A DNA stretch of 64,000 nt from an uncultured Pseudomonadota bacterium (GCA_903839465.1 CAIMCI010000366.1:15514-79513); one strand, 5' to 3'. Shown: positions 15,271 to 56,288, counted from the first letter of the stretch. The notes: generated by a model from the letters alone, not told the origin. Translations and numbers: made by a program.

Positions 15271-15666
15271 TTAGTCGTTCTTCTTCGCCAACTCGATTAG
15301 GTCTGGGAACGCACTTTGCAGGTCCTGCAACTCCTCGTAGCTGCGACGAATCGACTCGAGTGAAGTCGCTACTTTCCGCAGCTGCTCGTTCCCCTTCTGC
15401 CACTTCTTCGCCACGCCCACCTCGACCGCGTGAATTCCGCCGGCCTCACGAACTACGAAGGTCCGCTGGTCTTCATCATCCGGAGGGGGAGAAACCCCAC
15501 CCACGTCCTTGTAGTCGCGCCACCGCTTCTCGAACTCTGCCGACCACTGCCCCCGGTAGACCTCGTCCAGGTCCACGGAACCCCGGGGTTCCGTGCCGGG
15601 CTCCACCCCGAGGAAGCGGAGGATCCTGGAGCGCAGCTGGTCGTGCACCCAGCGACCTCGGCTCAC
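15271..15666 (-). CDS. Hypothetical protein (contains one copy of the 20-bp palindrome)
   Basis: 131-aa ORF with a GTG start overlapping the upstream stop. The palindrome at 15575..15594 encodes GTEPRGSV. Confidence 0.5.
   Translation of the reverse strand: MSRGRWVHDQLRSRILRFLGVEPGTEPRGSVDLDEVYRGQWSAEFEKRWRDYKDVGGVSPPPDDEDQRTFVVREAGGIHAVEVGVAKKWQKGNEQLRKVATSLESIRRSYEELQDLQSAFPDLIELAKKND
15575..15594. promoter_or_regulatory. 20-bp perfect palindrome ACGGAACCCCGGGGTTCCGT (copy 1, intragenic)
   Basis: Exact copy. It extends to 22 bp with the flanking C/G. No CGCGCCAT box is adjacent. Confidence 0.45.
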
Positions 15667-15881
15667 GGCTTGTCCCCGATGAGCTCGCGCAGCTCGGCGA
15701 CGGCCACCAGCAGGCCGTTCATCGCGCCTCGCTTGTAAGCCTTCACGATCCGCGGTTCCCCAGGAGTGTTCCCGCTCAGGTCGGCCGCGATCTCGTCCAA
15801 GTGGTTGGCGAGGGCACGCAGCCGCTCCCGCTTGATGGCCCGACGTTGCCCCTTCACGCCGACCTCTGCTTGCGCCGCCAA
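15663..15881 (-). CDS. Hypothetical protein
   Basis: 72-aa ORF in operon context. Confidence 0.45.
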   Translation of the reverse strand: MAAQAEVGVKGQRRAIKRERLRALANHLDEIAADLSGNTPGEPRIVKAYKRGAMNGLLVAVAELRELIGDKP

Positions 15882-16060
15882 GCCTTCAGCGCGTTGCGCT
15901 CCTCGGGCGTCATGCCCGCCACCAGGTGCTTCGGCTTGCGCTTGCTCGTCACCGGGAGGCGAACCTTACGGGGCGGTGGAGGGGTTCCCTCGTCCGCTGC
16001 CTTCGCGGCTCCCACCCGCACCATCTGACCGGCGACGAGGATGACTGGCCCGAGTCTCAT
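15854..16060 (-). CDS. Hypothetical protein
   Basis: 68 aa from MRLGPVILVAG. ATG 16060 shares one nucleotide with the helicase TGA (TGATG). Confidence 0.45.
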   Translation of the reverse strand: MRLGPVILVAGQMVRVGAAKAADEGTPPPPRKVRLPVTSKRKPKHLVAGMTPEERNALKAWRRKQRSA

Positions 16061-17544
16061 CACTTGCTCCTTCGTAGCTCTCGCATGTACTCGCCCGCGG
16101 GCAACCACTTGCCAGCATGGCGCACGACCACGCTCCCCGGGAACCAGCGCCGCAGGTTCTGCAACGGCCCGGGCCCGCTGAGCTCCTTGTCCCAGAGGTA
16201 GTAAACGGCCGCGTCCTTCTTCCCGCTCGACGTCCGGCTGAACCGCCCAACGAACTGCCGCAGCTGCTTGTCGGCGTCCCTGCTGTTCGCCGCCGGTGCC
16301 GCGATGATGCCCCGGCTCGCCGCCGGCAGGTCGAACCCGACGCCTACCGCCTGGAGCGTACCGACCCCGACCTTGACATCGCCCCGCACGAACCCATCCC
16401 GCGTCTCGCAGAACTGCTGACGGTAGTCATCCCCGCCGATGAGCAGCCCGCTCCGGAGCCCGGCCGACACCAGCATCCGGTCGACGGCGTGGCAGTGCTC
16501 GCGGCGCATCGTCAGCACGATGGCCTGCCCGGCCTCGCGTACGCACTCGGCGGCGCACTGAACCACCACGTCGTTCCGAGAAGAGCTCGAGAACATCTGC
16601 TCGAGCATCCGGTCCCGCTCCTTGATGCGCCCGGAGTAGCTGAGCCGCTTCCACCAGTCGGCCCGGAACGTGGTCGGCACTACGCGGAGCTCCACCTGGT
16701 GCACCAGGTCACGCGCCACGAGCTCCTCCCGCTTGACCTCGCACGCTACTTGGCCGAACTGCTCGTAGATCAAGAACTCCCGGCCGTCCGCGCGGCGCTC
16801 GTCCGCGCTGATTCCAACCACCCGCTTCGCGTCCATGTACGCCACCACGTCCTGGAACGAGCTCGCGGCAAACCCCTGCACCTCGTCACAGACCACGAGC
16901 CCGAACTTCCCCACGAGCTCGTCCAAGTGGCGCACTGCCGACTGCGTGGTGGCAATCGTCACGTCCCGCCCGAGCCACCGCTTGGCTCCCTGGAAGATTC
17001 CGAAGTCGACCGGGCCAGCTAGGTCCTCCTTCAGCCGGCGCACCCACTGCGTCACGAGCTCCGTCATGTGGACGAGCACCAGAGCCCGACGGCACACCAC
17101 CTGGATCAACCCGATGGCAGCCGTCGTCTTGCCGCTTCCCGGAGGAGCGCGCCAGAGGCACACCGGTTGCTCGACCCCGGAGCGAATGAGCCGCAGTTGG
17201 TAATCACGCTGCTGCCGCTCGGGCCTGTTCGGAGGCAGGACGATCCGCTCGCCCTCCACCCGAAAGTCGTCGAGCCTCGGCGGGTAGCCGTGCTTGACGA
17301 GCGTGCTCAGCGTCCACTCGAGGCTGGCCCGCGGCAGGGTCAGCACCTTGCCCCCCTCGCTCCACCGAGCCGAGATGAAGTTCGCCGGCTCGTCCCACCA
17401 GCCCGGGGTCTTCAGCTTCCTCGCCCGGGCGTACCTGGGGTTCGGGTGGGTGTGGGCGGAGACCAGCTCGTCGACGCAGGCAGCCGAAAGGTTCTTGGCG
17501 TCGAGCGTGACGGCGCTGGCGATCCGGACGGGTACGAGGCTCAT
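16060..17544 (-). CDS. SF2 DEAD/DEAH-box helicase
   Basis: 494 aa. Walker A APPGSGKTTAAI and motif II VVCDEVQ. Confidence 0.85.
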   Translation of the reverse strand: MSLVPVRIASAVTLDAKNLSAACVDELVSAHTHPNPRYARARKLKTPGWWDEPANFISARWSEGGKVLTLPRASLEWTLSTLVKHGYPPRLDDFRVEGERIVLPPNRPERQQRDYQLRLIRSGVEQPVCLWRAPPGSGKTTAAIGLIQVVCRRALVLVHMTELVTQWVRRLKEDLAGPVDFGIFQGAKRWLGRDVTIATTQSAVRHLDELVGKFGLVVCDEVQGFAASSFQDVVAYMDAKRVVGISADERRADGREFLIYEQFGQVACEVKREELVARDLVHQVELRVVPTTFRADWWKRLSYSGRIKERDRMLEQMFSSSSRNDVVVQCAAECVREAGQAIVLTMRREHCHAVDRMLVSAGLRSGLLIGGDDYRQQFCETRDGFVRGDVKVGVGTLQAVGVGFDLPAASRGIIAAPAANSRDADKQLRQFVGRFSRTSSGKKDAAVYYLWDKELSGPGPLQNLRRWFPGSVVVRHAGKWLPAGEYMRELRRSK

Positions 17545-18053
17545 CGGCCGCTCCTTCCGGACAGCAATGCGAGTGGCTTGCCCGTGGCGTAGGCTTCGGA
17601 GATCTGCGGCTCGATCAACTCGCCTACCGTTCGCCCGTCGGGCAGCATCATGTCGGCGAGGAACTCCCGCTCGACCGACGAACCGCCTTCGGCAACGAGC
17701 TCGAGCTTAGCCTTGACCACCAAGAGCAAGCGCCGCCACACCTCGCGGGCCCCCTGCTCGACGCGGCCGGCAACCCACCTCTGGCGCTCAGACACCGCCC
17801 ATCCCTGCCACCCTTTGGGGGTGTCGGCGTTCGCCGGCTTGTACGGGTCCGGTAACTTCTCATGTTTGTTGGCGAGCTGCATTCGGTAGAACCGCTCGCC
17901 AAACCGAAACGTCACGCTCGCCGTCTCGGTCAGGTAGTCCGAAACAACTGCGGTCCCGGTTGCCCCGTGCCTGGTGAGCAGCGTCTCGATCTCGGCCTTG
18001 CTCTTGGCCACTTCGACCGTCGTGCCTTCGGCGAACCGCCTGGTCTTGTTCAT
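17541..18053 (-). CDS. Hypothetical protein, first gene of the leftward early operon
   Basis: 170-aa ORF. ATG 18053 lies 10 nt after a CGCGCCAT box that directly abuts a palindrome copy. Confidence 0.65.
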   Translation of the reverse strand: MNKTRRFAEGTTVEVAKSKAEIETLLTRHGATGTAVVSDYLTETASVTFRFGERFYRMQLANKHEKLPDPYKPANADTPKGWQGWAVSERQRWVAGRVEQGAREVWRRLLLVVKAKLELVAEGGSSVEREFLADMMLPDGRTVGELIEPQISEAYATGKPLALLSGRSGR

Positions 18054-18063
18054 GCCCTATAGG

Positions 18064-18071
18064 ATGGCGCG
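18064..18071 (-). promoter_or_regulatory. CGCGCCAT box, 10 nt upstream of ATG 18053
   Basis: Coding strand reads ACGGAACCCCGGGGTTCCGT-G-CGCGCCATCCTATAGGGCATG. Confidence 0.55.
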
Positions 18072-18072
18072 C

Positions 18073-18092
18073 ACGGAACCCCGGGGTTCCGT
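18073..18092. promoter_or_regulatory. 20-bp perfect palindrome ACGGAACCCCGGGGTTCCGT (copy 2)
   Basis: Exact copy, 1 nt from the CGCGCCAT box of the early operon. Confidence 0.55.
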
Positions 18093-18140
18093 TGGAGGGG
18101 GGGTCCCCTCGCGCGCGGCGCGCGTACGCGCGTCACTGGT

Positions 18141-18190
18141 GATCATTGATCTGATCTCTTCTCTCTTGTTTGTATTTAAGATCTGATCTG
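18141..18190. promoter_or_regulatory. AT-rich block with five GATC sites and two GATCTGATCT direct repeats; candidate origin / divergent control region
   Basis: GATC at 18141, 18148, 18153, 18180 and 18185. GATCTGATCT at 18148..18157 and 18180..18189 (32-bp spacing). Flanked by imperfect inverted repeats TACGCGCGTCA / TGACGCGCGCGTA and by CG-alternating palindromes (CACGCGTG, GTGCGCAC). Confidence 0.35.
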
Positions 18191-18289
18191 ACGCGCGCGT
18201 AATAGAACCACACGCGTGCGCACGCGCGGAGCGCGTGCATGCCGGGCCAAGCCCGGCGGCACGGGGATAGTTCGATCTCCAGAACGGAA

Positions 18290-18297
18290 CGCGCCAT
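18290..18297 (+). promoter_or_regulatory. CGCGCCAT box, 11 nt upstream of ATG 18309
   Basis: Reads ACGGAACGCGCCATCATCCCTAGGCATG. A palindrome half-site, ACGGAAC, overlaps the first base of the box. Confidence 0.45.
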
Positions 18298-18308
18298 CAT
18301 CCCTAGGC

Positions 18309-18485
18309 ATGAGGCTCCGATCCCAAGTCACCCGACGCCAAGCCATCCCACCCGAACCATCGGGGGAGCCACCGCTGCCGTTGAAAGCACCGGAGGACGG
18401 TGCAGCCCGTACCCGCAGATACGAAGCCGAGCTGGCAGAAGGGTTCAGGATAGCCATGGAGAAGGACGATCGATGCCACTCGTAA
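18309..18485 (+). CDS. Possible small protein (58 aa)
   Basis: Internal ATG of ORF 18216..18485, placed 11 nt after a CGCGCCAT box. Sequence MRLRSQVTRRQAIPPEPSGE... has low complexity. Confidence 0.3.
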   Translation: MRLRSQVTRRQAIPPEPSGEPPLPLKAPEDGAARTRRYEAELAEGFRIAMEKDDRCHS

Positions 18486-18790
18486 TGACGGGCAACCTGT
18501 TCGGCCTCTACGGACGCTTCGACGTCATCGTACAGGCCAGGGACGAGTCCACCTACTGCGCCAAGCAACCCGTCTCAATCGAGCAGCTCCACCTAGCTCT
18601 CGAACGGCTCGAGGCGGAGAACCTTCCGCCGTTCTCGAGTGGGTACTACCGGGCAGCAGTGGGCAGCTACGTCGAAGGGCACCCGGGGGTGAGACGGGTC
18701 GACCTGTTCGGCAAGCTCCAGGTCAAGGTGTTCGTGCCGTATCTGCACGCCAGCGACGAGCTCATGCAGTGGCTCCAGGGAAAGGACTGA
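18473..18790 (+). CDS. Hypothetical protein
   Basis: 105 aa from MPLVMTGNLFG, preceded by GGAGAAGGA. Confidence 0.5.
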   Translation: MPLVMTGNLFGLYGRFDVIVQARDESTYCAKQPVSIEQLHLALERLEAENLPPFSSGYYRAAVGSYVEGHPGVRRVDLFGKLQVKVFVPYLHASDELMQWLQGKD

Positions 18791-18794
18791 GCCG

Positions 18795-19256
18795 TTGGCT
18801 TCCTCCGGGAAAGCCCACCTCCTACCGTTCTTCCTGGTGGCCCTACGGTCCATCGCAGACCGAGCTCCAAGGCTCCTACGCGTGGACCGGTGGCCTGCCG
18901 CCAAACCACCCGATGTCGAGCTGCCACCGAACCACGTCGACACCCGGGTCCACGGCAGGAAGTCACTGCGGCTCACGTTGCTCAACAATGCGTTGACCCC
19001 GAGCTTCGTCAGTGCCTACCAGACCATGTCGAACCTGCTCACCGACCTGCAGTTCCGGCGCTGCCGAGAAGGGGCTTGGCGGGCATACGACCGCTTCGTG
19101 GTGCTCTGGACCAACGAGACGGACTACCCGCTAGGCGAGATCCAGCACGCCGTGTTCAGGGGGATGCGCAGCGAGTGCCGGGACTGGACCGCCTTCTACG
19201 TCGTGGCGTTCGCTCCGCTCGAGCACGCCCGGGATGCAGGCGATCCGGCGAATTAG
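18795..19256 (+). CDS. Hypothetical protein
   Basis: 153-aa ORF with GC3 high throughout. The start is uncertain. Confidence 0.45.
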   Translation: MASSGKAHLLPFFLVALRSIADRAPRLLRVDRWPAAKPPDVELPPNHVDTRVHGRKSLRLTLLNNALTPSFVSAYQTMSNLLTDLQFRRCREGAWRAYDRFVVLWTNETDYPLGEIQHAVFRGMRSECRDWTAFYVVAFAPLEHARDAGDPAN

Positions 19257-19304
19257 GGCCGCCGGTCGAATTCCCTCGACGCAGAAAGGCTCGCCGGTCA
19301 TTCT

Positions 19305-19598
19305 GTGGACATGGCGACCACAGCACGACGACGAGCCCTTGACGACGATAGCCCAGTCCCGTTCGAGTCCCGCGAGCCCGTGAGCAAGCTCCGGAGCGTC
19401 CCACCCCCACCGCCCGAGCCGGAGGTGGACCCCATCACCGAGGCGAGGTTGAACCCGCTCGACATGCGAGCCGCGGTGAAGGCCAAGTGCTGGGACTGCG
19501 CCTCGCCGTGCAACAGCGCCGAGGCAATGGAGTCGATCGGCAACTGCGGAGTGGGCAGCTGTCCGCTTCATCCGCACCGCCCGTTCCAGCGGCTCTAG
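19305..19598 (+). CDS. Small Cys-rich phage protein
   Basis: 97 aa. The C-terminal KCWDCASPC...IGNCGVGSCPLHPHRP resembles a small Cys-rich family I recall from prophages. Function unknown. Confidence 0.55.
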   Translation: MDMATTARRRALDDDSPVPFESREPVSKLRSVPPPPPEPEVDPITEARLNPLDMRAAVKAKCWDCASPCNSAEAMESIGNCGVGSCPLHPHRPFQRL

Positions 19599-20413
19599 CC
19601 GAAGAGTGCCGGGTCGGCCTTCAGCGGCCAGCTCAGCATGTCCTCGAGATCCCGCTCGAGGATGTCGGCATCCCGTTCCCTGATCATGGCGGCTTGCAGG
19701 TCCTCATCGGCCATGGCCGCAACCGCCATCACGTTGCCGGCCTCGTAGTCGTTCAGCACCGGCAGGGAGTTCCAGTCGACCTGGTCAGCGGCGGCCTTCA
19801 CTCGGGGCATGCAGCCGACCAGCAGCGCCGAGTACTTGGCCTCCATCGCCGTGTAGTAGCCGCCGAGCTTGAGCGCATGCGCATAGGCAGCCGGACTGCC
19901 CGACCAGAGCGCCTCGAACGCGGCAGGGAACCTCCGCTCGAGCAGGCTCACGTGGTCGGTGACGCCGGCGAGCAGGTCTGAGAACGCGCGGAAGCAGCAC
20001 CCCGAGTGCTTGGGACTGATGCGCACGCTGGCCATGGCCCGGCCGTTCATCGTGTACTGGCCAACGACCTGCACGAGCGGGCTGCCGGCGCAGAGCTGCT
20101 CGGCGTAGGCGAGGGTGAGCTCCTCGCCACAGGTGAAGAACGTCCAGTCGTAGGCGCCTCCGGACACCGCCTTGGCGTTGCCCACGTTGTAGTCGTGGCA
20201 CTTCTCGCCCCAAGCCACCTCACCTGCCCACTGCGCAGTCATCAGCTCGACGGCCGAGCGCGGCGGTGCCGCCCCACGCAGGTGTAGCCATGCCCGGTAG
20301 AAGGCCGGGAGTATCTGCTCTAGGGCCACCGGGGTCAGCTGGTCGGGAAACTCGTGGGTGGCGGCCAGTGCAAGTGGGGTGTCCGGTGCGGTGGGGATGT
20401 TGTCGTTCGACAT
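19595..20413 (-). CDS. Putative endolysin, N-acetylglucosaminidase (FlgJ/LytD-like) type
   Basis: 272 aa. AQWAGEVAWGEKCHDYNVGNAKA ... CFRAFSDLLAGVTDHVSLL ... ALKLGGYYTAMEAKY follows the glucosaminidase-domain pattern (WG..N.GN.K, FRAF, GY.T...Y). Confidence 0.55.
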   Translation of the reverse strand: MSNDNIPTAPDTPLALAATHEFPDQLTPVALEQILPAFYRAWLHLRGAAPPRSAVELMTAQWAGEVAWGEKCHDYNVGNAKAVSGGAYDWTFFTCGEELTLAYAEQLCAGSPLVQVVGQYTMNGRAMASVRISPKHSGCCFRAFSDLLAGVTDHVSLLERRFPAAFEALWSGSPAAYAHALKLGGYYTAMEAKYSALLVGCMPRVKAAADQVDWNSLPVLNDYEAGNVMAVAAMADEDLQAAMIRERDADILERDLEDMLSWPLKADPALFG

Positions 20414-20430
20414 GGGCTCGAGGGTAGCGC

Positions 20431-20450
20431 ACGGAACCCCGGGGTTCCGT
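20431..20450. promoter_or_regulatory. 20-bp perfect palindrome (copy 3) at a divergent junction
   Basis: Lies 17 nt from ATG 20413 (minus gene) and 22 nt from ATG 20473 (plus gene). Confidence 0.55.
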
Positions 20451-20454: not shown

Positions 20455-20462
20455 CGCGCCAT
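20455..20462 (+). promoter_or_regulatory. CGCGCCAT box, 10 nt upstream of ATG 20473
   Basis: Reads GGCCCGCGCCATCATCCGCTCCATG. Confidence 0.55.
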
Positions 20463-20472
20463 CATCCGCTCC

Positions 20473-21252
20473 ATGCGATTCCACGTGATCACCTGCTGGC
20501 GCAAGAACCTCGGCGACACCTACCTGCTGCGCACCCTCGCGCAGCTGCGCCGTCAAGTGGCGGCGCTGAACGAAGAGGGGGTCGACAACCACTGCATCTA
20601 CGTGCGCGTCGATGGAGACTCGTCCGCGGTGAAGCGCATCCGGGATGACGTCGAGCAGCAGGTCAACCTCTGCCCTCTACCCGTCCACACGCAAGTGGTC
20701 CCGCTCGGCCAGTGCGGCGGCCACACGAGAGCCTGGAGAACGCTGCTCGACCAGGCGAGCCGCCACCTCGGCTCCGCCGTCTTCCTCGAGGATGACCTAC
20801 TGCTCGACTCACGTGCCGCACGGGAGATGGTCGCCCTGGTCCCGGGTTCGAGCTGCGGGTTTCTGACCTTCTACGACGGCAACCGACTACCCGAGAAACA
20901 CCCCGACGGTGTCGTCGTCCAGCCGATACGCGGAGAGAACGGGCACGGAGTTTGGGGCCTGATCGCCATCAAGATGCCGTGCGAGGTGGTGCGCTACTTG
21001 GTGGATGCCGACTGGGACAGTGACGATGTGAAGACCTTCCCAGGCTACCTGCTACACCTCGCGAACTGGGGCAACGCGCTCAACGCAGCCGACGTATTCA
21101 CTTCGTCGCTGCTGAGCCGTAGCCCGTGGCCGAACTACTCCATCCACGTGCCGAGCCTGGTGCAGCACGTGGGAGCTAGCAGCGAGTGCTTCGGGCCCGG
21201 CGTCGGTCTGCGTGGCAGGACCGCGCGTAACTGGCGACCCTCCGCGCCATGA
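20473..21252 (+). CDS. GT-A fold glycosyltransferase-like protein
   Basis: Starts at MRFHVITCWRKN. The N-terminal beta-strand/helix pattern is typical of GT-A enzymes, and the acidic VFLEDDLLLD sits at the DXD position. Confidence 0.55.
   Translation: MRFHVITCWRKNLGDTYLLRTLAQLRRQVAALNEEGVDNHCIYVRVDGDSSAVKRIRDDVEQQVNLCPLPVHTQVVPLGQCGGHTRAWRTLLDQASRHLGSAVFLEDDLLLDSRAAREMVALVPGSSCGFLTFYDGNRLPEKHPDGVVVQPIRGENGHGVWGLIAIKMPCEVVRYLVDADWDSDDVKTFPGYLLHLANWGNALNAADVFTSSLLSRSPWPNYSIHVPSLVQHVGASSECFGPGVGLRGRTARNWRPSAP
21243..21250 (+). promoter_or_regulatory. CGCGCCAT box, 9 nt upstream of ATG 21260
   Basis: Reads CCTCCGCGCCATGACTGGGGCATG. It overlaps the glycosyltransferase stop. Confidence 0.5.
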
Positions 21253-21259: not shown

Positions 21260-21964
21260 ATGAGCTCCACATCGCGTCTCGTCGACGACCCAACCCACAA
21301 ACCCCTGGACCAGTACTGGACGCCGGATGCGTTGGCTAGCGCCAGCATCGCTCGGCTCCACATCCACCGCGGGATGGGTTGGTGGAGCAAGTGCTACGCG
21401 CTCGAGCCGCACTGCGGGCAAGGTGCGTGGTTGCGAGCAATGGACAAGTGCGTGACCGCAATCGACGTGTGCGACATTGACGCTCAGTGGACCGCCGTCG
21501 CACACAATTCAAGCAGCCACATTGGCCGGAAGATCCTGGGCGACTTTCTCACGGTCGACTTCGAGCCGACCAACGCAAAGGGAACTGGGTGGGGTGGTTA
21601 CGACCTCATCTGCGGCAACCCACCGTTCTCGCGCATCGCGCGGGACGCGCACGGCAAGCCGCTACTCACGAAGAAGGGCAAGGAGAAGTTCGAGACCGTG
21701 GCCCATCTGCACGTCGAACGGGCACTTCAGTTGCTGAACCCAAGCGGCTTGCTGGCGTTCGTTCTGCGTCTAGGGTTGCTCGGGTCGAACGATCGAGCCG
21801 CGTTCTGGGACCGCTACCCGCCGAGCTGCGTCTACGTGCTGCGCCCGCGGCCGTCATTCACGGGTGGGGGTAGTGACTCGGCCGACTACGGGTTGTTCGT
21901 CTGGGACAAACGCAAAGAAGCCCAGGGCAACGTGACCGCCCTGGGCTTCCTCGACTGGGCTTAG
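21260..21964 (+). CDS. N6-adenine DNA methyltransferase (NPPF type)
   Basis: DQYWTPDALA, motif I LEPHCGQGAW, motif IV LICGNPPFSR. Confidence 0.85.
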   Translation: MSSTSRLVDDPTHKPLDQYWTPDALASASIARLHIHRGMGWWSKCYALEPHCGQGAWLRAMDKCVTAIDVCDIDAQWTAVAHNSSSHIGRKILGDFLTVDFEPTNAKGTGWGGYDLICGNPPFSRIARDAHGKPLLTKKGKEKFETVAHLHVERALQLLNPSGLLAFVLRLGLLGSNDRAAFWDRYPPSCVYVLRPRPSFTGGGSDSADYGLFVWDKRKEAQGNVTALGFLDWA

Positions 21965-21968
21965 CCGG

Positions 21969-22526
21969 CTACGGACACTTCGAGACGAACTTCATCGACG
22001 ACACGCCAGGAGACGCATCTCCCATGCGAGTCGTTGCCGTGACGGTCGTGCCAATCGGCACATCGTAGATGCACGGGTGGTAGCAGGTGCACGCCCCGGA
22101 AACGTCGAGCGAGAGGATGCAGCAGTCAGTTCCTCCGTCCGGAGTTGCCGACGTGCCACCTGTCGATGTGGAGACCGGCGTCCCGGCAGTTCCTCCGTCC
22201 GGAGTTGTCGCCGTCCCACCCGAGCCCTGCCCGCCGGCAGCCTGCTCCTCGCTATGCACTCCTGCATCTAGCTCGAGCACGTCAACGCCCCTAACCGATT
22301 CAGATGCGGGGCTGCACCCGATGAGGACAAAGAACAGAACTCCGGTACCGATCGCCCAGACGAGAGCCGCCATGATGGACGTCGCCAGCACGTGCTCGCC
22401 GAGCTTCCGCATCCGTTCACCCGGCTTGGTCATGTAGGCAATACCGAGCACGATGCCGACCGGCGGCATGAGGACTGCTGTCGACGTGAGCCCGCGATAT
22501 GAGGGGTGGGTCTTGATTGGTTTCAT
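21969..22526 (-). CDS. Membrane protein with Thr/Gly-rich repeat and Cys-rich C-terminus
   Basis: 185 aa with two hydrophobic helices, GGTATTPDGGTAGTPVSTSTGGTSATPDGGT, then CCILSLDVSGACTCYHPC. Confidence 0.55.
   Translation of the reverse strand: MKPIKTHPSYRGLTSTAVLMPPVGIVLGIAYMTKPGERMRKLGEHVLATSIMAALVWAIGTGVLFFVLIGCSPASESVRGVDVLELDAGVHSEEQAAGGQGSGGTATTPDGGTAGTPVSTSTGGTSATPDGGTDCCILSLDVSGACTCYHPCIYDVPIGTTVTATTRMGDASPGVSSMKFVSKCP
22127..22207. repeat. Direct repeat at 60-bp spacing inside the membrane-protein gene
   Basis: cagttcctccgtccggagttg occurs at 22127..22147 and again at 22187..22207. Confidence 0.7.
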
Positions 22527-24952: not shown

Positions 24953-24972
24953 ACGGAACCCCGGGGTTCCGT
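24953..24972. promoter_or_regulatory. 20-bp perfect palindrome (copy 4) at a divergent junction
   Basis: Lies between the RadC operon (leftward) and ATG 25002 (rightward). Confidence 0.55.
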
Positions 24973-24983: not shown

Positions 24984-24991
24984 CGCGCCAT
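24984..24991 (+). promoter_or_regulatory. CGCGCCAT box, 10 nt upstream of ATG 25002
   Basis: Reads GGCCCGCGCCATCCTCCCCCCTATG. Confidence 0.5.
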
Positions 24992-25001
24992 CCTCCCCCC
25001 T

Positions 25002-25421
25002 ATGCGCACCCCCCGCCGCCCGGCCCCTAGCTCCAAACCCGAACCGGACCCTGACGGCCGGGGCCTAAAAAGGCTACCCACCGGAACTGTTCGGCCCCTA
25101 GAAAGCGTTTCTGGCCCCCTCCCCGGGGGGTTGCCTAGGCGGGCCCGCCAGCCCCGGTTCACGGGCGTTGGCTGGCCAGAGATCATCGCCGCCCTGGGTA
25201 TCGACGACGACGCCCGGCTAGCGGCCATGGGCCGGTACCGCACCGCCGGCTGGACCCCGGAAGACTTCGCCGGTCAATGGGGCGCCCGCCGGGCCATGGC
25301 CGAGTCACTCACCTACGCCGAAGATCAAATCGAGAAGAAAGTCGACTGCCCGCGGCTGCGTGCTGCCCGCTCCGCTCTACGTGACGTGAGACGACGGCTC
25401 GAGCTCGAGCTCTGGCCCTAG
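25002..25421 (+). CDS. Hypothetical protein (N-terminal third may be non-coding)
   Basis: 139-aa ORF. The first ~50 codons are P/R/G-rich and CTAG-rich with hairpins. The C-terminal part (GWPEIIAALGIDDDARLAAMGRY...) looks coding. Confidence 0.4.
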   Translation: MRTPRRPAPSSKPEPDPDGRGLKRLPTGTVRPLESVSGPLPGGLPRRARQPRFTGVGWPEIIAALGIDDDARLAAMGRYRTAGWTPEDFAGQWGARRAMAESLTYAEDQIEKKVDCPRLRAARSALRDVRRRLELELWP

Positions 25422-33218: not shown

Positions 33219-33515
33219 TCAGCCGAACTCCTCGTCGACGTCCGGGTCGGAGTTCGACACCCGTCCGCCGCCCACCTTGAGCCCACCCCCGAACGGGTTG
33301 GTGAGTGAGCAGCGGATGGAGAGCCAGAAGCTCAGGCTGGGCGGGAAGTCCCATGGCGGGAACTTCGGGATGCGGAAGCTCAAACCGTAGCCGAACGGAG
33401 GGATCGACAAGCCGCACGGCAGCGCACCCACCGGCACCCCCTGGAAGCCGACCTTCAGCCCGATCGTCTGCTGCGCAGCGGGAGATGGGTAGTCAGGCGG
33501 CGGCGGGAAGCCCAT
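33219..33515 (-). CDS. Small Pro/Gly/Phe-rich baseplate-module protein
   Basis: 98-aa ORF. ATG lies 15 nt from a palindrome copy. Confidence 0.45.
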   Translation of the reverse strand: MGFPPPPDYPSPAAQQTIGLKVGFQGVPVGALPCGLSIPPFGYGLSFRIPKFPPWDFPPSLSFWLSIRCSLTNPFGGGLKVGGGRVSNSDPDVDEEFG

Positions 33516-33530
33516 GTCCTGGATAATCCC

Positions 33531-33550
33531 ACGGAACCCCGGGGTTCCGT
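33531..33550. promoter_or_regulatory. 20-bp perfect palindrome (copy 5) at a divergent junction inside the baseplate module
   Basis: Lies 15 nt from ATG 33515 (minus gene) and 21 nt from ATG 33572 (plus gene). Confidence 0.55.
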
Positions 33551-33553: not shown

Positions 33554-33561
33554 CGCGCCAT
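33554..33561 (+). promoter_or_regulatory. CGCGCCAT box, 10 nt upstream of ATG 33572
   Basis: Reads GTCGCCGCGCCATTGATAGGGGCATG. Confidence 0.55.
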
Positions 33562-33571
33562 TGATAGGGGC

Positions 33572-34177
33572 ATGAGTAGCAACGACGAACCCACCTCGCT
33601 CGGCAAGGTGCTCGTGACGCGCGGCACCGATGCCGCGATCCTGGTGCGCTACCTGGACCGACACAGTCTGAAGTCCTTGTGGGTGCCGCGAGCCGTTGTC
33701 TGCGATGACGGCGGCATTGCCAAGGACTCGGTGCGCGGTGAGGAGGGGGAGCTGTTCGTGCCCCAGTGGTTCGCCGACAAGGACGAGGTCGAGGCGTGGA
33801 TGGCCAAGTCGACGCCCGAGCAAGATGCCTCTTGGGAGCTAGGCCGCCAGTCGAAGGAGAAGCTGCTCGAGCTCGAGGCTGCTGCGAAAGAAGCCACCGC
33901 GATCCCCATCGACCGACGAGGCTCGAAGATGCTCGTCAAGGACCGCAAGGTGGTCGGCTTCGTCTGCTCCCGCGAGAAGCCCGTGCCGTGCTCCGCCAAG
34001 TGCGGCCGCGACGCCGAGGTCGAGTGCGAATACCCACTTGGCGGCAAGAAAGCCGGGGAGCTCTGCGGCCGAAAGCTCTGCCGACGCTGCGCCGTGAAGC
34101 TCGGCGGCAAGGTGCGCTGCCCGCCGCACGTCGAGCTAGCCCGCGAGCAGCCCGGCGCAGCCGAGCCCCGGCGCTGA
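33572..34177 (+). CDS. Opposite-strand moron: hypothetical protein with Cys-rich C-terminal domain
   Basis: 201 aa. It is the only plus-strand gene between 26 and 64 kb. The C-terminal region has ten Cys (CSREKPVPCSAKCGRDAEVECEYP...CGRKLCRRCAVKLGGKVRCPPH). Its 3' end overlaps the spike gene by 42 nt. Confidence 0.6.
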   Translation: MSSNDEPTSLGKVLVTRGTDAAILVRYLDRHSLKSLWVPRAVVCDDGGIAKDSVRGEEGELFVPQWFADKDEVEAWMAKSTPEQDASWELGRQSKEKLLELEAAAKEATAIPIDRRGSKMLVKDRKVVGFVCSREKPVPCSAKCGRDAEVECEYPLGGKKAGELCGRKLCRRCAVKLGGKVRCPPHVELAREQPGAAEPRR

Positions 34178-35213: not shown

Positions 35214-36056
35214 TCATTCAGGGTCCTGATCACGGAACGTCTGCACGATGTCGAACTTCACCGGGCTGGCCAATAGTTGGTCGACCTTCTCGTGCAATGC
35301 CTTCAGGTCTTGAGCGATCTGTTCTCCGTGTAGCTCGTCCTTCAGGTCGAGCTCGTAGTTGGCGTCGGCCTGGGCGCGGTCCTTGGCCGCCTGCCGGTTC
35401 TGCGACATCACGATGAGCGGCCCTTGCAGGTAAACCCAGATGCCGAGCACGATGTTCAGGAACTGGTACGGGTACGGGTCGAATGACTTGGCGAACAAGA
35501 ACCACGCCGTGATGATGACCGATGACCCAATGATGAACCGCCAGCTGCCATTGAACTCGGCAACGGAGTCGGCCAGGCGCTGACCGAACCCGCGCGTGCC
35601 CTCATGCTCGCGTACCGCGTTGCGCACCACTCGCTTGGTCAGGATCTCATCAGTGCTCCGCACCCGCTCCACCAGCGTATTCATCATCTCGAGTGCCACC
35701 CCGTAGTTGTGCGCGAGGAAGTTCGCCACCACGCCGCGTGAGAACATCAGCACAATCGTTCTCGTCGTCGCGGTCACATCGGCGGAGTGCGGCTTCTGGT
35801 CGATCAATCCGAGCTCTCCGAAGAAGTCCCCGCGGCCGAGCCGCTTGAGCTCCACCCGCTCATCCCCCTCGCCGAGAGTCACCGCGAGTTCGCCCTCCGC
35901 CACTACCGCAAGATCACCCCCCGTGTCGCCGGCCTTCGATACCACCTCACCCGGGGAGCAGAACTTCACCGTGGCCATCCGGTCGAGTAGGTCTAGGTCC
36001 TCGGCCCGCAAGCCCGAGAACAGGGGCACCCGCCGCAGCATCTCCACGTTGGTCAT
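35214..36056 (-). CDS. Cyclic-nucleotide-binding domain fused to a DUF1003-type two-helix membrane domain
   Basis: 280 aa. The CAP_ED signature runs LRRVPLFSGL ... GDFFGELGLIDQKPHSADV. The DUF1003 signature is GSWRFIIGSSVIITAWFLF..FDPYPYQFLNIVLGIWVYLQGPLIVMSQNRQAAKDR followed by a coiled coil. Confidence 0.85.
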   Translation of the reverse strand: MTNVEMLRRVPLFSGLRAEDLDLLDRMATVKFCSPGEVVSKAGDTGGDLAVVAEGELAVTLGEGDERVELKRLGRGDFFGELGLIDQKPHSADVTATTRTIVLMFSRGVVANFLAHNYGVALEMMNTLVERVRSTDEILTKRVVRNAVREHEGTRGFGQRLADSVAEFNGSWRFIIGSSVIITAWFLFAKSFDPYPYQFLNIVLGIWVYLQGPLIVMSQNRQAAKDRAQADANYELDLKDELHGEQIAQDLKALHEKVDQLLASPVKFDIVQTFRDQDPE

Positions 36057-51105: not shown

Positions 51106-51146
51106 TCTGATCCTCCGTCAGGTCGGTTTGTTTGTCCGGGACATTG

Positions 51147-51182: not shown

Positions 51183-51222
51183 CTTGCCGGTACTGTCCCC
51201 GGCAGGACTCTGAGACCTTCGG

Positions 51223-51921: not shown

Positions 51922-51980
51922 GATCGACCTCCTTTATGGCTCCCCCGCCGAGGGGTCGTGACCCCGGCGGGAGGAAACTT

Positions 51981-52400: not shown

Positions 52401-52406
52401 GGCGGC

Positions 52407-52631
52407 CTAGAGCTTGAAAGGCTTGTAGCCGTTGCCGACGCTACCGGCTCCACCCGGGCGGGTTGCCGGGGCGTCCTGGTGCGGGAGCAGCGGGGAGACC
52501 GAATCCTGCGGATTGATGCGGCTCGCCGGGTTGCCCATCGGCTGCTGGAGCACCGAGCTGTCGTTCAGGTTGTTGCCGTTCTGGGGGCCGGGGAGTTTGC
52601 CGGCACTGCTGTTCTCGAGGGGGTTCGCCAT
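52407..52631 (-). CDS. Small Pro/Gly/Asn-rich protein ending in KPFKL
   Basis: 74-aa ORF, probably disordered. Confidence 0.45.
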   Translation of the reverse strand: MANPLENSSAGKLPGPQNGNNLNDSSVLQQPMGNPASRINPQDSVSPLLPHQDAPATRPGGAGSVGNGYKPFKL

Positions 52632-52646
52632 CGGTGGGTTGCTCCT

Positions 52647-52901
52647 TCAGGGCTTGGTGATTTTGAAGGGTACACCACTCCGAGGCGGTGGAGGCGGGCC
52701 GAACCGCATCGTGGTCGAGCCGGAGGGGGCCGTGCCTTGGCCGACACCCGGGTGCCATGCACCTTCCGGCAGCTTCGCCTGCATGGATTCTGCCGGCTGC
52801 GCGCCAGTCGTGGCGGGGTACTCACGGAACTTGCCGTCGACGCCCCGCGTGATGGGCAACTCGGTGTCGAGCTTGAAAGGTTTGCCGCCTGCCATGCCCA
52901 A
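52647..52901 (-). CDS. Small Pro/Gly-rich protein with N-terminal KPFKL and C-terminal VPFKI
   Basis: 84-aa ORF: MGMAGGKPFKLD...SGVPFKITKP. Confidence 0.45.
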   Translation of the reverse strand: MGMAGGKPFKLDTELPITRGVDGKFREYPATTGAQPAESMQAKLPEGAWHPGVGQGTAPSGSTTMRFGPPPPPRSGVPFKITKP

Positions 52902-52913
52902 AGGGTAGCACCG

Positions 52914-53894
52914 CTAGCGCATCTTGAAGCCGCTCGTGTTCCAGGGGGGCTTCGGCGGGGGGCCGCCCTTGCGCCCCTCCTGACGCCAGCGCTGCGCCAC
53001 GTCAGCCTGGCTCTTCGGCTTCAGGTACGCGGACACCGGCCACTCGACATCCCAGAGCACCACCACCTCGCGGTCGTTTGGGCGATTCGGCGGCGCGAGG
53101 TATTCACCTTCCCACCAGGTGAAAGGCTGGTCCACGCGTCGTACTTGTCCATGCACGGCATAGCTGTCGGAGCCCGTCCTGTCGTCGAACGTGGCGCAGA
53201 GAATTCTCACCATCCCGCCGCCCACCTGCTCGCTGATCTCCTGGTGAGCCTGAAGCGTTGACCTCGCGTGGGCGGCCGCGGTTTCCGTACGAAGTATCCG
53301 CTCAGCCCAGTACGCCGGAGCCTCCTGCAAGAAGGGTGACTGCTGGATGAGCAGGTCGCGTGCCTCGTCCCACGGCATGCTCTGCAATAAGCGCTGCTGG
53401 AGCACGTCCTCGAACTGCCCAACCACGCGCCCCGCGTAGCGCTCCATCACGCCCGGCCTGCCCGGGTGCGCCGGGTCGGCCTGGATGCGGTGCAGCACGC
53501 TCGACTCGGTGCCGACAACGGACCGCTCGAGCACCGTTGCTGCATCCAGAGCGAGCGGCTTGCCCGTGATGCCCTGGAAGTTCTTCTCGGCAGCGCGGAA
53601 TGACTTCAGCGTGCCCTCACCCGCCACCGCGGCAGCCTGCTTGGCCGTGTCGACCACCACCCCCTTCATCTCGGGCAGGAGGGTGCGGAGGACGACGCGC
53701 ACCTGCCGAAGAGAGGCCTCGAGCTGCGCCCTGGTGAAACTCCCCGCCATGCCCGGCGACAATCGCTTGAGCCTTCGCTCGAGCCCGCGCTCGGCCTTCT
53801 CGAGCGAACGGCGGAGCGGGCCGCGGCCTGCCCTGTCGGCGTAGCGCATGGCGAGCGCGTGGTTGGTGCGCACGAGCTCGACCGGGTCGGCCAT
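52914..53894 (-). CDS. Head morphogenesis protein (Mu gpF / SPP1 gp7 family)
   Basis: 326 aa. ERILRTETAAAHARS and CATFDDRTGSDSYAVHGQV fit the Phage_Mu_F pattern. Position is directly after the portal gene. Confidence 0.75.
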   Translation of the reverse strand: MADPVELVRTNHALAMRYADRAGRGPLRRSLEKAERGLERRLKRLSPGMAGSFTRAQLEASLRQVRVVLRTLLPEMKGVVVDTAKQAAAVAGEGTLKSFRAAEKNFQGITGKPLALDAATVLERSVVGTESSVLHRIQADPAHPGRPGVMERYAGRVVGQFEDVLQQRLLQSMPWDEARDLLIQQSPFLQEAPAYWAERILRTETAAAHARSTLQAHQEISEQVGGGMVRILCATFDDRTGSDSYAVHGQVRRVDQPFTWWEGEYLAPPNRPNDREVVVLWDVEWPVSAYLKPKSQADVAQRWRQEGRKGGPPPKPPWNTSGFKMR

Positions 53895-53903
53895 GCCCCG
53901 ATG

Positions 53904-56288
53904 CTACGCGGGCGGCGGTCCCGACGGAACCCCGGGGTTCCGTGGCGGAGCTCCGGGCACTGGAGGTGGTGCGGGTGGTTCCGCCGCCTTGTCCTCCTTA
54001 GCTAGCTCGTGCTTGGCCTGCTCTACCTGCACCTTGGCGCTCGCGTCGTACATGGACGCGTTCTTCGCGTCGAACGCCGACACGGTGAGCCACCCGTCCG
54101 GGTCGAGCTGGCCGTCCATCGTCATCAGCGGCCCTTGGCCAATGATCTCGCGTGCCTCATTGACCCGAAGGATCATCCCGACCGTGGTGGGCGAGAGCTC
54201 CACGCTCTTGGCCTTCACCGTGCCCACCGGGAGCACCGCCACATCAGCGGCGGGCTGCTCCTCGGGCTCGGCTGGCTCTTTGCCCGGGGGCACGGGCGGC
54301 TCGTCTTCGTCCGGCGGTGCCTCGGGGGCCGGCTGTTTTCCGCCTCCCGCTGCGCCTGTAGGCCGCTCAGAATCGTTTTCGGAACCGGCCTGGGGGGTAG
54401 CCCCCTGGTCAAGCTCGACGACCGTGTTCTCGTCCTGCTTGGGCATCCGGCCGCCGCTCGTCCCCCACTGATCCACCTCGAGCCGAGCGGCCCGCTCGGT
54501 CTCGTCCTGCACTCGCTGGTACTCCTCGGTACCGTCCAGGTCCCACTGATTGGCGGCCATCTGCACGGCGGACTGCTGCGACAAGACCGCCTTATTGCCC
54601 GCCGCGGCTGACAGCGTGCCGGTCGTCTTCTGCAGGTCGTCTGCGGTGGGCTTGAAGTACGGCCCCCACTCGAGCCAGATGCGTCCCTGACCGGGTGTCC
54701 TCTCGACCTCGACAGTCTTCGGCTCACCGGCGTCGTCGAGCACCTCCTTGCCGGCGTCGTCGAGCACCGGGTCGATGCGCGGCGGAAGGTCGAACCCGAC
54801 CGTGACTTCCACCTCGAGCTCCTCCTCCGGCTCGACAATCTCTTCCTCGTCAACAGCGCCCTCACCCCGTTGAATCGGGGAAGCCTTGGAGGCCGGCACC
54901 TCGGGCGAATCGAGTGAGACGTCATTGCCTTCGAGCAGCCAACGCGCCTCGTCGATGAGGCCCTGCACCACCCGCTCGATCCCCATCTTGCCGTGCTGGT
55001 AGCGGAGCTTGTCGCAGCGGGCCGTCATCGGCGCGTAGATGATCCGAATGGCCACGCTCGACAAGCCGGCCGCTGCCGCCTTGTCCGGGTCGACCAGGAT
55101 GCAGCTGCACACCTCCAGAATCTGGTCTCGCTTCGCGTCGCAGAGCCCCGTCGCACTGGCAATCATTTGCCCATCGAGCTGGAGGTACTTCGCGTCGCCG
55201 TCCTTGCCGACGAAGAGTGCGTTATCGCTACCCTTCTTGATGACGGCGCCTGGGCCCATCATCTCCGGGTCCATCCGCATCACGAGCGTCGGGTCGAGGT
55301 TGCGAGCCGTGCCGCAGTCGAGCACCGAGTTGATGACGTCCAATGCATTCATCGGCAAGAACGTCTCGCCGAAGTCCGGCAGGCCGTCGTAGGTGTTGTC
55401 GTCCGTGTCGGGCTCGTTCTCGACGAAGACGAAACGGCAGGCGTCGCGGCCGTGCTGGCTCGACTGCTCCTCGTCCACCACCCATTCGGGCTCTTTGCTC
55501 GTAACCTCCAGGTCCTTGTAGATGACGTCTTCGCCGACAAGCCAGTCGCGCCGCCGCCAGTGGGCAACCTTTTCCACCTTGCCGCTGGCCCTCACCACCC
55601 GCTTGTTGATGGTCTTCACCTCGACCACGTGCGCCGGCACTCGGTCGTCCTCGCCCTGCCACTCGATGACGTGGATGTTCTCAGCGAGGTGGCGCTTCAC
55701 GCGCGGCTTGCCGTTCACCCAGGCGTAGGAGTAGCCGACGCTGCCGCGACTTCCCGCCACGTCGCGGGCCATGTTGGCGATGGGCTCCAGGCTCGCAGCC
55801 TGCACGATGGCCTCGGCGAAGTCCTGCGTGTCGTGGTCGTCGCTGCGGAACTGCGGAAACCGACCGTGGCCGAAGAGCAGCTCAGTGAAGCTGATGACGA
55901 TCTTGTGGCCGATGAGGTACGGGCTGCTCGGGCGGCGCTGGTCGAGCGGTACGTAGAATTCCGGCACGTAGCCGCCGATGAGCGGCTGCGTCACGCTGAT
56001 GCCGCCCGGCTGGATCATCCGGCCGTAGAAGTCGAACATCTTCCAGTCGTGCTGCTTGCCCTGGAAGTAGCTGGCCCGGAACTTCAGCGCGCGCACCCGG
56101 TCGCTCGTCACGAGCTCCATCACGTTCACGCTGCTGCCGGAGGCACGCGTCGCCCGGTCCGGGCCGGTAGTGGTGCCAGCCGGGCCGAAGCTCGAGTAAG
56201 CCTGCGTCATCCCGCCCTGCCCTCCGCCCACTGGGAACGGGCCGCGGGATGCCCCGGGGAGCTGGTGGATCGTCGCTTCGCCGGCCAT
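53904..56288 (-). CDS. Portal protein
   Basis: 794 aa with no Walker A. It sits upstream of the Mu-F-like gene and has an acidic/Pro-rich C-terminal extension. Confidence 0.75.
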   Translation of the reverse strand: MAGEATIHQLPGASRGPFPVGGGQGGMTQAYSSFGPAGTTTGPDRATRASGSSVNVMELVTSDRVRALKFRASYFQGKQHDWKMFDFYGRMIQPGGISVTQPLIGGYVPEFYVPLDQRRPSSPYLIGHKIVISFTELLFGHGRFPQFRSDDHDTQDFAEAIVQAASLEPIANMARDVAGSRGSVGYSYAWVNGKPRVKRHLAENIHVIEWQGEDDRVPAHVVEVKTINKRVVRASGKVEKVAHWRRRDWLVGEDVIYKDLEVTSKEPEWVVDEEQSSQHGRDACRFVFVENEPDTDDNTYDGLPDFGETFLPMNALDVINSVLDCGTARNLDPTLVMRMDPEMMGPGAVIKKGSDNALFVGKDGDAKYLQLDGQMIASATGLCDAKRDQILEVCSCILVDPDKAAAAGLSSVAIRIIYAPMTARCDKLRYQHGKMGIERVVQGLIDEARWLLEGNDVSLDSPEVPASKASPIQRGEGAVDEEEIVEPEEELEVEVTVGFDLPPRIDPVLDDAGKEVLDDAGEPKTVEVERTPGQGRIWLEWGPYFKPTADDLQKTTGTLSAAAGNKAVLSQQSAVQMAANQWDLDGTEEYQRVQDETERAARLEVDQWGTSGGRMPKQDENTVVELDQGATPQAGSENDSERPTGAAGGGKQPAPEAPPDEDEPPVPPGKEPAEPEEQPAADVAVLPVGTVKAKSVELSPTTVGMILRVNEAREIIGQGPLMTMDGQLDPDGWLTVSAFDAKNASMYDASAKVQVEQAKHELAKEDKAAEPPAPPPVPGAPPRNPGVPSGPPPA
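53924..53943. promoter_or_regulatory. 20-bp perfect palindrome (copy 6), inside the last codons of the portal gene and 29 nt upstream of ATG 53894
   Basis: Exact copy. It is followed on the minus strand by CGGGACCGCCCGCGTAGCATCGGGGCATG, a degenerate box. Confidence 0.5.

Follow-up and report, generated by a model that had tools for sequence, protein, structure and literature searches.

The closest described phenomenon to the element reported here is the palindrome of the Cluster O mycobacteriophages, a 17-bp sequence (TGTTCGG-N3-CCGAACA) present in 34 copies in Corndog (PMC4351075). In Cluster A phages, a repressor site of the L5 gp71 type is repeated genome-wide, some copies (operators) lying in promoters and others (stoperators) blocking elongation, and the site motif and its binding protein diverge together between related phages (PMC6550527, PMC9283540). 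The IncP plasmid RK2/RP4 carries identical reiterated palindromes, OA and OB, many of them at divergent promoters, through which KorA and KorB, small dimeric helix-turn-helix (HTH) or ParB-type proteins, exert coordinate repression (PMC11790492, PMC2665229; the OB and OA sequences are in PMC11790492). Here we analyse a 20-bp perfect palindrome, ACGGAACCCCGGGGTTCCGT, found in six exact copies in a stretch of 64,000 nucleotides catalogued under an uncultured Pseudomonadota bacterium (GCA_903839465.1 CAIMCI010000366.1:15514-79513), hereafter the window, the source of which is an uncultured phage of about 88 kb.

On the best-supported reading, to which we give a probability of about 0.58, this 20-22-bp palindrome would be the operator and roadblock site of a phage-encoded, sequence-specific dimeric DNA-binding protein. 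It has the two-fold symmetry and the identical copies of an operator, and it overlaps inferred core promoter elements at seven gene starts. A bound dimer would fill the -35/spacer region of promoters devoid of a -35 element at five of eight copies and, at compact divergent junctions, a single dimer would occlude and thereby silence two back-to-back promoters. The same complex could serve as a symmetric roadblock or insulator at the ends of genes, both at the three copies that lack a promoter and wherever transcription arrives from upstream. The binder may be a small Fis-type HTH protein encoded at 8837-9112.

Copies of the palindrome and their surroundings

Each of the six positions listed in the earlier note holds an exact copy, and no further site appears in the window when one to three mismatches are permitted. 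Dinucleotide shuffles give an expectation of 0.01 sites, with six reached in 0 of 100 shuffles, which bears out the claim that such a set does not arise by chance. We extended the window with flanking DNA from other samples (L025 and L029, 100% identical to it where they overlap) and found two more exact copies, so that the phage carries at least eight over about 84 kb, all identical and all perfect. G is preferred at the bases abutting the palindrome (11/16 and 10/16 half-sites), giving a weak 22-24-bp palindrome. The 40-nt flanks of the copies are unrelated (28% pairwise identity versus 26% for random windows), hence the repeat unit is the palindrome alone and no larger block was duplicated. 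Half-sites occur at chance-level frequency in the window overall. The copies, the putative promoters beside them and an isolated half-site are as follows.

15575-15594: palindrome copy 1, intragenic (gene 15271-15666, minus), downstream of the SF2 helicase operon; without an adjacent promoter
18073-18092: palindrome copy 2, divergent junction, 19 nt upstream of ATG 18053 (phrog_17260-like gene and helicase operon)
18051-18071, minus: putative promoter and start beside copy 2; CGCGCCAT 18064-18071, -10-like CATCCT 18061-18066, 7 nt, ATG 18051-18053
18284-18297, plus: lone half-site ACGGAAC joined to a CGCGCCAT box; a small, apparently leaderless open reading frame (ORF) follows at ATG 18309
20431-20450: palindrome copy 3, divergent junction
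20411-20426, minus: putative left promoter of copy 3; TACCCT 20421-20426, 7 nt, ATG 20411-20413 (272-aa gene)
20455-20475, plus: putative right promoter of copy 3; CGCGCCAT 20455-20462, CATCAT 20460-20465, 7 nt, ATG 20473 (259-aa gene, followed by an Eco57I-like methylase)
24953-24972: palindrome copy 4, divergent junction, 29 nt upstream of ATG 25002; start of the leftward RadC unit more than 100 nt away
24984-25004, plus: putative right promoter of copy 4; CGCGCCAT 24984-24991, CATCCT 24989-24994, 7 nt, ATG 25002
33531-33550: palindrome copy 5, divergent junction within the baseplate module
33513-33528, minus: putative left promoter of copy 5; GATTAT 33523-33528, 7 nt, ATG 33513-33515 (98-aa gene, conserved in relatives)
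33554-33574, plus: putative right promoter of copy 5; CGCGCCAT 33554-33561, 10 nt, ATG 33572 (201-aa Cys-rich moron)
53924-53943: palindrome copy 6, in the Pro/Ala-rich C-terminal tail of the portal gene, encoding RNPGVPS
53892-53906, minus: putative promoter of the MuF-like gene, beside copy 6; TAGCAT 53901-53906, 6 nt, ATG 53892-53894
L025:4441: copy outside the window, 38 nt past the stop codon of an SbcD-like gene
L029:6106: copy outside the window, 23 nt past the stop codon of a 559-aa gene

The box CGCGCCAT is part of a motif of about 21 nt, CGCGC-CAT(C/T/G)NN-N7-ATG, whose commonest form is CGCGCCATCATCCNGGGCATG. Thirteen boxes lie in the window, each oriented with its downstream gene, and seven more lie in the flanks, for a phage total of at least 20:

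Minus strand: 2259-2266, 4802-4809, 6204-6211, 8582-8589, 10695-10702, 12503-12510, 15259-15266, 18064-18071
Plus strand (first position): 18290, 20455, 21243, 24984, 33554
Outside the window: L025:423, 3683 and 11998; L029:2185, 3198, 6381 and 8095

The gap from box to ATG is exactly 10 nt in 10 boxes and 9 or 11 nt in two, and no Shine-Dalgarno sequence stands between box and ATG; at two boxes the leader is longer and contains a Shine-Dalgarno sequence, and one of these boxes (6211) also has an ATG 10 nt downstream. Many boxes lie immediately 3' of the preceding stop codon. Numerous other genes have a canonical TANNNT hexamer 6-7 nt ahead of the ATG, and a consensus scan of 15-34.9 kb returned no sigma-70 -35/-10 pair. 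We infer that boxes and hexamers are promoters lacking a -35 element, from which transcription would start at or near the start codon and produce leaderless mRNAs. The nearest relatives (L004 and L005) keep the box as CGCGCCATAGT-N6-7-ATG and L017 has CGCGC-TACTCT-N7-GTG, forms that are consistent with a -10 function. Since L004 and L005 retain the box while their palindromes differ, palindrome and promoter are separate modules. The box may be the target of the phage's own sigma-like factor.

How are the copies placed relative to these elements? On five copies, six flanks carry an nAnnnT hexamer that stands 6-7 nt ahead of the ATG of a genuine gene; by a rough estimate from base composition, chance would give about 0.5 such flanks. 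The hexamers begin 2, 4, 6, 9, 16 and 17 bp past the palindrome end, and the seventh flank, to the right of copy 5, carries the box. The palindrome thus always lies over the would-be -35/spacer region, in variable register, at seven promoters inferred from sequence that include those of all four divergent junctions. It was proposed previously that the palindrome centres lie about 26-40 nt from the flanking starts (we measure 25.5-39.5 nt from the ATGs), in the -35 region of leaderless genes and acting in both directions. The hexamer spacing and the lack of a Shine-Dalgarno sequence support the first part of this proposal, and the compactness of two divergent junctions supports the second: only 59 bp separate ATG from ATG at 20.44 kb and 56 bp at 33.54 kb, with one palindrome for two back-to-back promoters. 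Of the two options offered there, a dimeric repressor and a class-II-type activator, the repressor is the better fit to a register that varies from 2 to 17 bp to the -10 hexamer.

The palindrome is found at 4/4 divergent junctions of the window, as had been noted, and at 0/4 convergent junctions. The convergent pairs (19595-19598, 21964-21969, 25418-25421 and 34136-34177) overlap or lie 4 bp apart and have no terminator, so that transcripts of the plus-strand cassettes must enter the minus-strand genes antisense. The four copies at divergent junctions are upstream of the inferred transcription starts, and three of the four co-directional copies in the phage lie within 40 nt of a stop codon. 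Copy 6 does occupy the last 13 codons of the portal gene, with the MuF-like ATG 29 nt away; the portal stop codon, TAG, is also the beginning of the MuF promoter hexamer TAGCAT, and the portal tail that hosts this copy is variable, being different in every homologue. Copy 1 is intragenic as described, in frame and encoding TEPRGSV at codons 25-31, and the half-site at 18284-18290 does meet the box at 18290-18297. The view of the palindrome as a marker of boundaries between early, accessory, moron and head expression units holds only loosely. Its designation as a master switch is unproven: over about 84 kb, the scanned proteins and the stored Pfam hits, which together cover part of the ORFs, include no integrase, CI/Cro-like pair or lysogeny module.

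Palindromes of related phages and a candidate binding protein

Alignment of helicase homologues led us to 21 IMG/VR and 57 metagenome loci, on contigs of up to 107 kb, whose helicases are 25-48% identical to that of the window and whose G+C content ranges from 37% to 71%. These relatives share a gene order: helicase, 169-aa gene, DnaB, primase, HTH_8 paralogues, sigma-like gene, 459-aa gene and PolB. About two-thirds of the loci of at least 10 kb (about 20 relatives) have their own repeated palindrome, perfect or near-perfect, 18-24 bp long and different in sequence in each genome, with 3-9 copies per ~20 kb. Examples are:

L005: GACGCCGGATCGATCCGGCGTC
L006: ACGGAAACACGTGTTTCCGT
L009: CCGCAATACGTATTGCGG
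L016: GACCGAAAGTCGACTTTCGGTC
L017: GGAGATAACACCGGTGTTATCTCC
L018: CCACCGCACGGCGCCGTGCGGTGG
L023: TTGGAAACCCGGGTTTCCAA
L024: ATGGATGATCGATCATCCAT
L052: ATGGAAGACCGGTCTTCCAT

The positions of these copies match those in the window. At least 10 relatives have a palindrome ahead of the helicase module, like copy 2, and others stand right behind the helicase gene, like copy 1; portal regions on the same contigs, tens of kb away, again contain the genome-specific palindrome. Of 86 sites counted in 20 genomes, 62% are intergenic versus 13% of random positions (p=3e-25), and a called gene start follows within 40 nt in 27% versus 6% (p=3e-9), with the reservation that gene calls were made by codon log-odds and are rough, especially above 70% G+C, so that junction classes are approximate. 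The window's own sub-clade has a different palindrome in the same layout: palindrome-12 nt-TAGTAT-7 nt-ATG at L094:1778 and palindrome-12 nt-TACCCT-6 nt-ATG at L097:3154. A palindrome that is identical within genomes and different between them, at conserved positions, argues for recognition by a trans-acting specificity factor that each genome itself encodes.

Nearly all relatives have small HTH_8 (Fis-type) genes behind the primase gene, most often a pair of paralogues. Those of the window are:

8837-9112, minus: first HTH_8 paralogue, 91-aa Fis-type HTH protein, candidate cognate binder
8248-8571, minus: second HTH_8 paralogue, with a box promoter; recognition helix conserved in relatives

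The family profile matches the DNA-binding domain of RacA (E=3.6e-5) and ZraR, with a weak match to Fis as well. The recognition helix of the second paralogue, RT(F/I)xRWI, is constant whatever the palindrome, whereas that of the first varies. Seven genomes combine an xRRxxY(R/K) helix with a detected palindrome, and six of them have GGA(A/T) at half-site positions -8 to -5, the exception being L055, where it lies at -11 to -8. A GGAT-type half-site was predicted for L040 from its helix and then found. In the nine genomes that have both paralogues, half-site similarity is matched by similarity of the first-paralogue helix (Mantel r=0.62, p=0.003), also with helicase identity controlled for (partial correlation 0.66, p=0.001). 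The second-paralogue helix gives r=-0.18, and half-site similarity compared with helicase phylogeny gives r about 0.

A putative operator ahead of the gene for its own presumed binder is a layout seen in two relatives only: in L052, 10 nt separate the palindrome end from the ATG of the first HTH_8 paralogue, and in L005 palindrome and box precede the only HTH_8 gene, another copy being located 15 nt before the sigma-like gene. On the strength of this layout and of the co-variation between helix and half-site, the 8837-9112 protein is our leading candidate for the palindrome binder, an assignment that is suggestive rather than decisive and that we hold tentatively. Among the HTH proteins proposed by the earlier note, it is the best candidate; the helix of the 8248-8571 protein shows no co-variation. 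Apart from the 8837-9112 protein itself, the only homologue that a search found for it is a 70% relative on a 1-kb palindrome-free contig, and its AlphaFold model, built from two sequences, had a mean confidence (pLDDT) of 56.7 and was not used.

Operator, hairpin or mobile repeat

Several observations speak against an operator bound by this protein. Three of the eight copies (copy 1, L025:4441 and L029:6106) have no promoter-like motif next to them, and the contrast between 4/4 divergent and 0/4 convergent junctions is weaker than it appears because overlapping convergent junctions leave no room for a palindrome. The co-variation drops to r=0.30 (p=0.085) with 11 genomes, L017 and L046 have a common palindrome core and dissimilar helices, about one-third of the relatives have HTH_8 genes and no detectable repeated palindrome, and neither HTH_8 gene of the window adjoins a palindrome. 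In relatives, many copies lie 2-8 nt 3' of a stop codon, the classic place for a terminator, and a few lie exactly between convergent stop codons (L008:9155 and L016:16460). Finally, the palindrome of L008 forms an arm of two tRNA-like elements, which hints at a role at the RNA level.

The last three points favour the main rival to the operator reading, a nucleic-acid hairpin that works without a dedicated DNA-binding protein, either as a bidirectional terminator or insulator lacking a U-tract or as an mRNA processing or stability hairpin. Such a hairpin would stop read-through, including antisense transcription from the plus-strand cassettes, just ahead of the next leaderless promoter. As RNA, the palindrome forms in every context an 8-9-bp G+C-rich stem with a CCGG loop, and upstream transcription can reach all eight positions, given that convergent genes overlap and lack terminators. 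In L040, conserved arms surround a variable, non-palindromic 4-nt centre; in L071, two palindromes differ by a symmetric arm change. The two L071 sequences are long palindromes, GCGGGGGCATCGATGCCCCCGC at L071:304 and AAAGCGGGGGTATCGATACCCCCGCTTT at L071:4544, changed on both arms.

Other properties of the palindrome fit a hairpin poorly, and we regard this explanation as unlikely. No copy is followed by a T-tract and a terminator scan flagged none, although terminators without a U-tract are beyond the reach of such sequence criteria. Folding energies in context are ordinary (z of -0.2 to -1.5). Terminators have no need to be identical within a genome, yet every copy is, and the centre is self-complementary in all repeat-bearing genomes but L040 (in an unbiased k-mer scan), which a loop does not require. 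In the imperfect copies of L008, L013 and L015 a single arm is altered, mostly by changes that disrupt pairing (A.A, U.U, C.A): three of four copies in L013 have A.A or U.U, and all nine copies in L008 share one asymmetric C/T position, found ahead of plus-strand genes in either orientation. The palindrome precedes the inferred transcription start at seven promoters and, in the nine-genome set above, an HTH recognition helix co-varies with the half-site. Both sets of placements, at promoters and at gene ends, are accounted for by a symmetric site whose bound protein occludes promoters and blocks read-through, the combination known from Cluster A operators and stoperators (PMC6550527).

The RNA-like elements of L008 merit a description of their own. 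A tRNA-like and hammerhead-like set, also present in L007 and L043, occupies 16701-16769, 18453-18504, 18949-19017 and 17873-17935. The tRNA-like elements have a 7-bp acceptor stem and a canonical T-arm and score 21-24 bits against tRNA-Sec, below threshold; ARAGORN calls none of them. A third element is a mini-helix without the palindrome arm, and a nearby Hammerhead_II-like match reaches 33.3 bits for a gathering score of 37.

Could the sites be bound by another phage protein, for instance a ParB- or KorB-like one encoded just outside the window, whose effect would be partition, condensation or silencing and not the mere blocking of promoters? Dispersed palindromes of 13-16 bp are the targets of ParB, Noc and KorB, and two ParB_N-domain proteins are encoded at L025:7904-8482 and L025:9683-10471. 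These proteins are short, have no detected HTH and belong to a Mom/radical-SAM DNA-modification block, and we find this explanation improbable. Consensus parS-like sites do occur in two relatives, the perfect core GTTTCACGTGAAAC being present once each at L013:10802 and L040:9929; it is absent from the window. We rejected a parS-like identity for the window palindrome, which differs from both parS and the Noc-binding site (NBS).

A selfish or neutral short repeat, akin to repetitive extragenic palindromic (REP) sequences or miniature inverted-repeat transposable elements, or else a recombination hotspot, could have spread within the phage without any regulatory role, or could be a REP of the host. 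The identity of the copies and the presence of the single asymmetric variant in 9/9 copies of L008 suggest copying, and Cluster O repeats appear to mediate deletions (PMC4351075). However, similarity does not extend past the palindrome ends, the copies are precisely placed by -10 hexamers, and their positions match across relatives despite sequence change. Among about 60 proteins that were scanned or have stored Pfam hits, part of the ORFs of the phage, neither a Y1 nor a REP-associated tyrosine transposase (RAYT) was found. The pattern search suggested earlier to exclude a host REP returned no hundreds of scattered copies: ACGGAACCCCGGGGTTCCGT occurs in 2 of 185,579 bacterial and archaeal species genomes (one genome each), as single copies, about the chance expectation in that much G+C-rich DNA by a rough base-composition estimate. 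The matches are in a Streptomyces scaffold and in a metagenome-assembled genome of Eubacteriales that have no protein in common with the window, and IMG/VR has none. The element is thus phage-specific and we rejected the host REP, bearing in mind that the true host may be missing from the collection; the selfish repeat as a whole we judge very improbable.

Least probable of all, in our estimate, is a pair of back-to-back -35-like elements read by an extracytoplasmic function (ECF)-like sigma factor of the phage, which would make the palindrome a bidirectional promoter element instead of an operator. The phage does encode a protein with sigma-70 region 2 (6267-6905), conserved in relatives, and many palindromes include GGAAC, GAAAC or GCAAC, the first of which resembles ECF -35 motifs. 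Sigma factors tolerate about 1 bp of spacing variation, with 16-17 bp between the -35 and -10 elements for ECF factors, whereas the distance from palindrome to -10 element or box varies over 15 bp. Furthermore, at least eight box promoters of the window have neither a palindrome nor a conserved -35 element, and the C-terminal region of the sigma-like protein shows no correlation with the half-sites (r=0.00, p=0.48, 14 genomes). We rejected an ECF -35 element on account of this variable spacing and lack of co-variation.

The phage genome and comparison with known systems

The portal protein of the window is 100% identical to that of an 88,189-bp metagenome contig of ENA record ERZ1426852. The window has a G+C content of about 65% and almost all its genes are on the minus strand. 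They include structural genes (portal, MuF-like, baseplate J and spike-like proteins), replication genes (SF2 helicase, DnaB, DnaG-type primase and PolB), MT-A70 and Eco57I-type methylases, RadC and, as regulatory-type genes, two small Fis-type HTH proteins and one ECF-sized protein with sigma-70 region 2. Megablast and blastn searches of 50,697 phage records gave no nucleotide match, the best portal match to any cultured phage is 27% identical, and a terminase-like ORF has no match by exact-protein look-up and no relatives in IMG/VR. ARAGORN predicts no tRNA in the window or in the relatives, and no Rfam family matches the window at its gathering threshold.

Some of these genes deserve further comment. 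The ECF-sized protein at 6267-6905 (minus) matches sigma-70 region 2 with a Pfam E-value of 3.9e-7, its C-terminal half being highly divergent. It is followed by a gene for a 459-aa protein (4812-6191, minus), and the pair is kept upstream of PolB in nearly all relatives; sequence searches of PDB with both proteins were uninformative. Behind the box at 4809, a 21-codon leaderless upstream ORF (4727-4791, minus; MKSPDRRAAGFEVLRLVVHLP*) has a stop codon that overlaps the PolB start (ATGA), which suggests that PolB translation is coupled to this mini-ORF. A protein with cyclic-nucleotide-binding and DUF1003 domains is encoded in the tail/baseplate region (35214-36056, minus) behind a putative leaderless promoter of its own, TATCCT-N7-ATG; this gene is probably a moron.

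The stretch from 18093 to 18283, between copy 2 and the next box, is non-coding and lies upstream of the helicase/replication module. G+C-rich, alternating GCGC palindromes flank its A+T-rich core, which holds GATCTGATCT in two copies, and the stretch may serve as an origin of replication. The non-coding stretches 3' of copy 2 and 3' of L029:6106 have only the box in common. Within an ORF upstream of the portal gene, a 60-bp tandem repeat (57452-57655; 3.4 copies, 96% matches) varies in number between samples, L029 being about 100 bases longer there and otherwise identical. At the window edge (63881-64000), periods of 9, 18 and 27 bp correspond to a collagen-like Gly-X-Y repeat on the minus strand.

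If the operator reading is true, one short site and one small protein provide a handle on the whole transcription programme of an abundant clade of uncultured phages, and the approximately 20 natural variants of site and protein specificity would be of use for following the drift of a DNA-recognition code and as orthogonal repressor/operator parts. A bolder proposal, which we consider doubtful, is that a clade of uncultured 60-107-kb phages, having leaderless promoters and an ECF-like sigma gene of their own, uses a rapidly diversifying pair, palindrome and Fis-type HTH protein, as a genome-wide, phage-private insulator and silencer. This pair would silence leaderless promoters that stand back to back and stop read-through from either side, in genomes where convergent genes overlap and have no terminators, and its private specificity would resemble an immunity or exclusion code in phages without an evident lysogeny module. 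In a stranger variant, the element may also work in RNA, as the tRNA-like arm found next to a hammerhead-like motif in L008.

What is new here is the clade-wide set of private palindromes together with a candidate protein. They add an independent case to the unexplained reiterated palindromes of the Cluster O type, for which the placement at leaderless promoters lacking a -35 element suggests a concrete function. Both the Cluster O repeat and the window palindrome are private to the phage and not found as a repeat in host genomes, have invariant arms, are dispersed, mostly in short intergenic regions or near gene 5' ends, and have been proposed to bind a dimer (PMC4351075). The Cluster O repeat has 7-bp arms, a 3-bp A/T spacer and more than 30 copies, mostly away from promoters (PMC4351075), whereas the window palindrome is 20-22 bp long and spacer-free, has eight known copies, most of which abut -10 hexamers, and is unrelated in sequence, as are the phages themselves.

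REP sequences and the mosaic elements they form (BIMEs), as well as intrinsic bidirectional terminators, are likewise G+C-rich intergenic palindromes, often right after stop codons. REPs are imperfect palindromes that number in the hundreds in a host and are associated with RAYTs, and terminators are variable in sequence and usually have a T-tract; the window palindrome has neither set of features. The conserved inverted repeats (CIRs) of phage phiC31, a temperate phage with a defined repressor gene, are 17-bp sequences bound by the c repressor beside conserved early promoters. The likeness, a further analogy in mechanism, is an actinophage-style combination of a reiterated palindromic operator with a family of near-identical promoters that do not resemble those of sigma-70.

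The RK2 system differs in belonging to a plasmid and not to a phage, in its 12-13-bp operators and in that KorB is a CTP-dependent sliding clamp. As for Cluster A, its temperate phages of known immunity have 20-30 stoperators, each an asymmetric 13-bp site to which a monomer binds and which is aligned with the direction of transcription; the sites of the window are symmetric and no integrase was seen among the proteins surveyed. We rejected a stoperator of this type for the window, since the palindrome is perfect and the asymmetric variant of L008 sits in both orientations. In terms of mechanism, the best analogies would nevertheless be these two systems: the operator/stoperator sets of Cluster A phages and the KorA and KorB operators of RK2.

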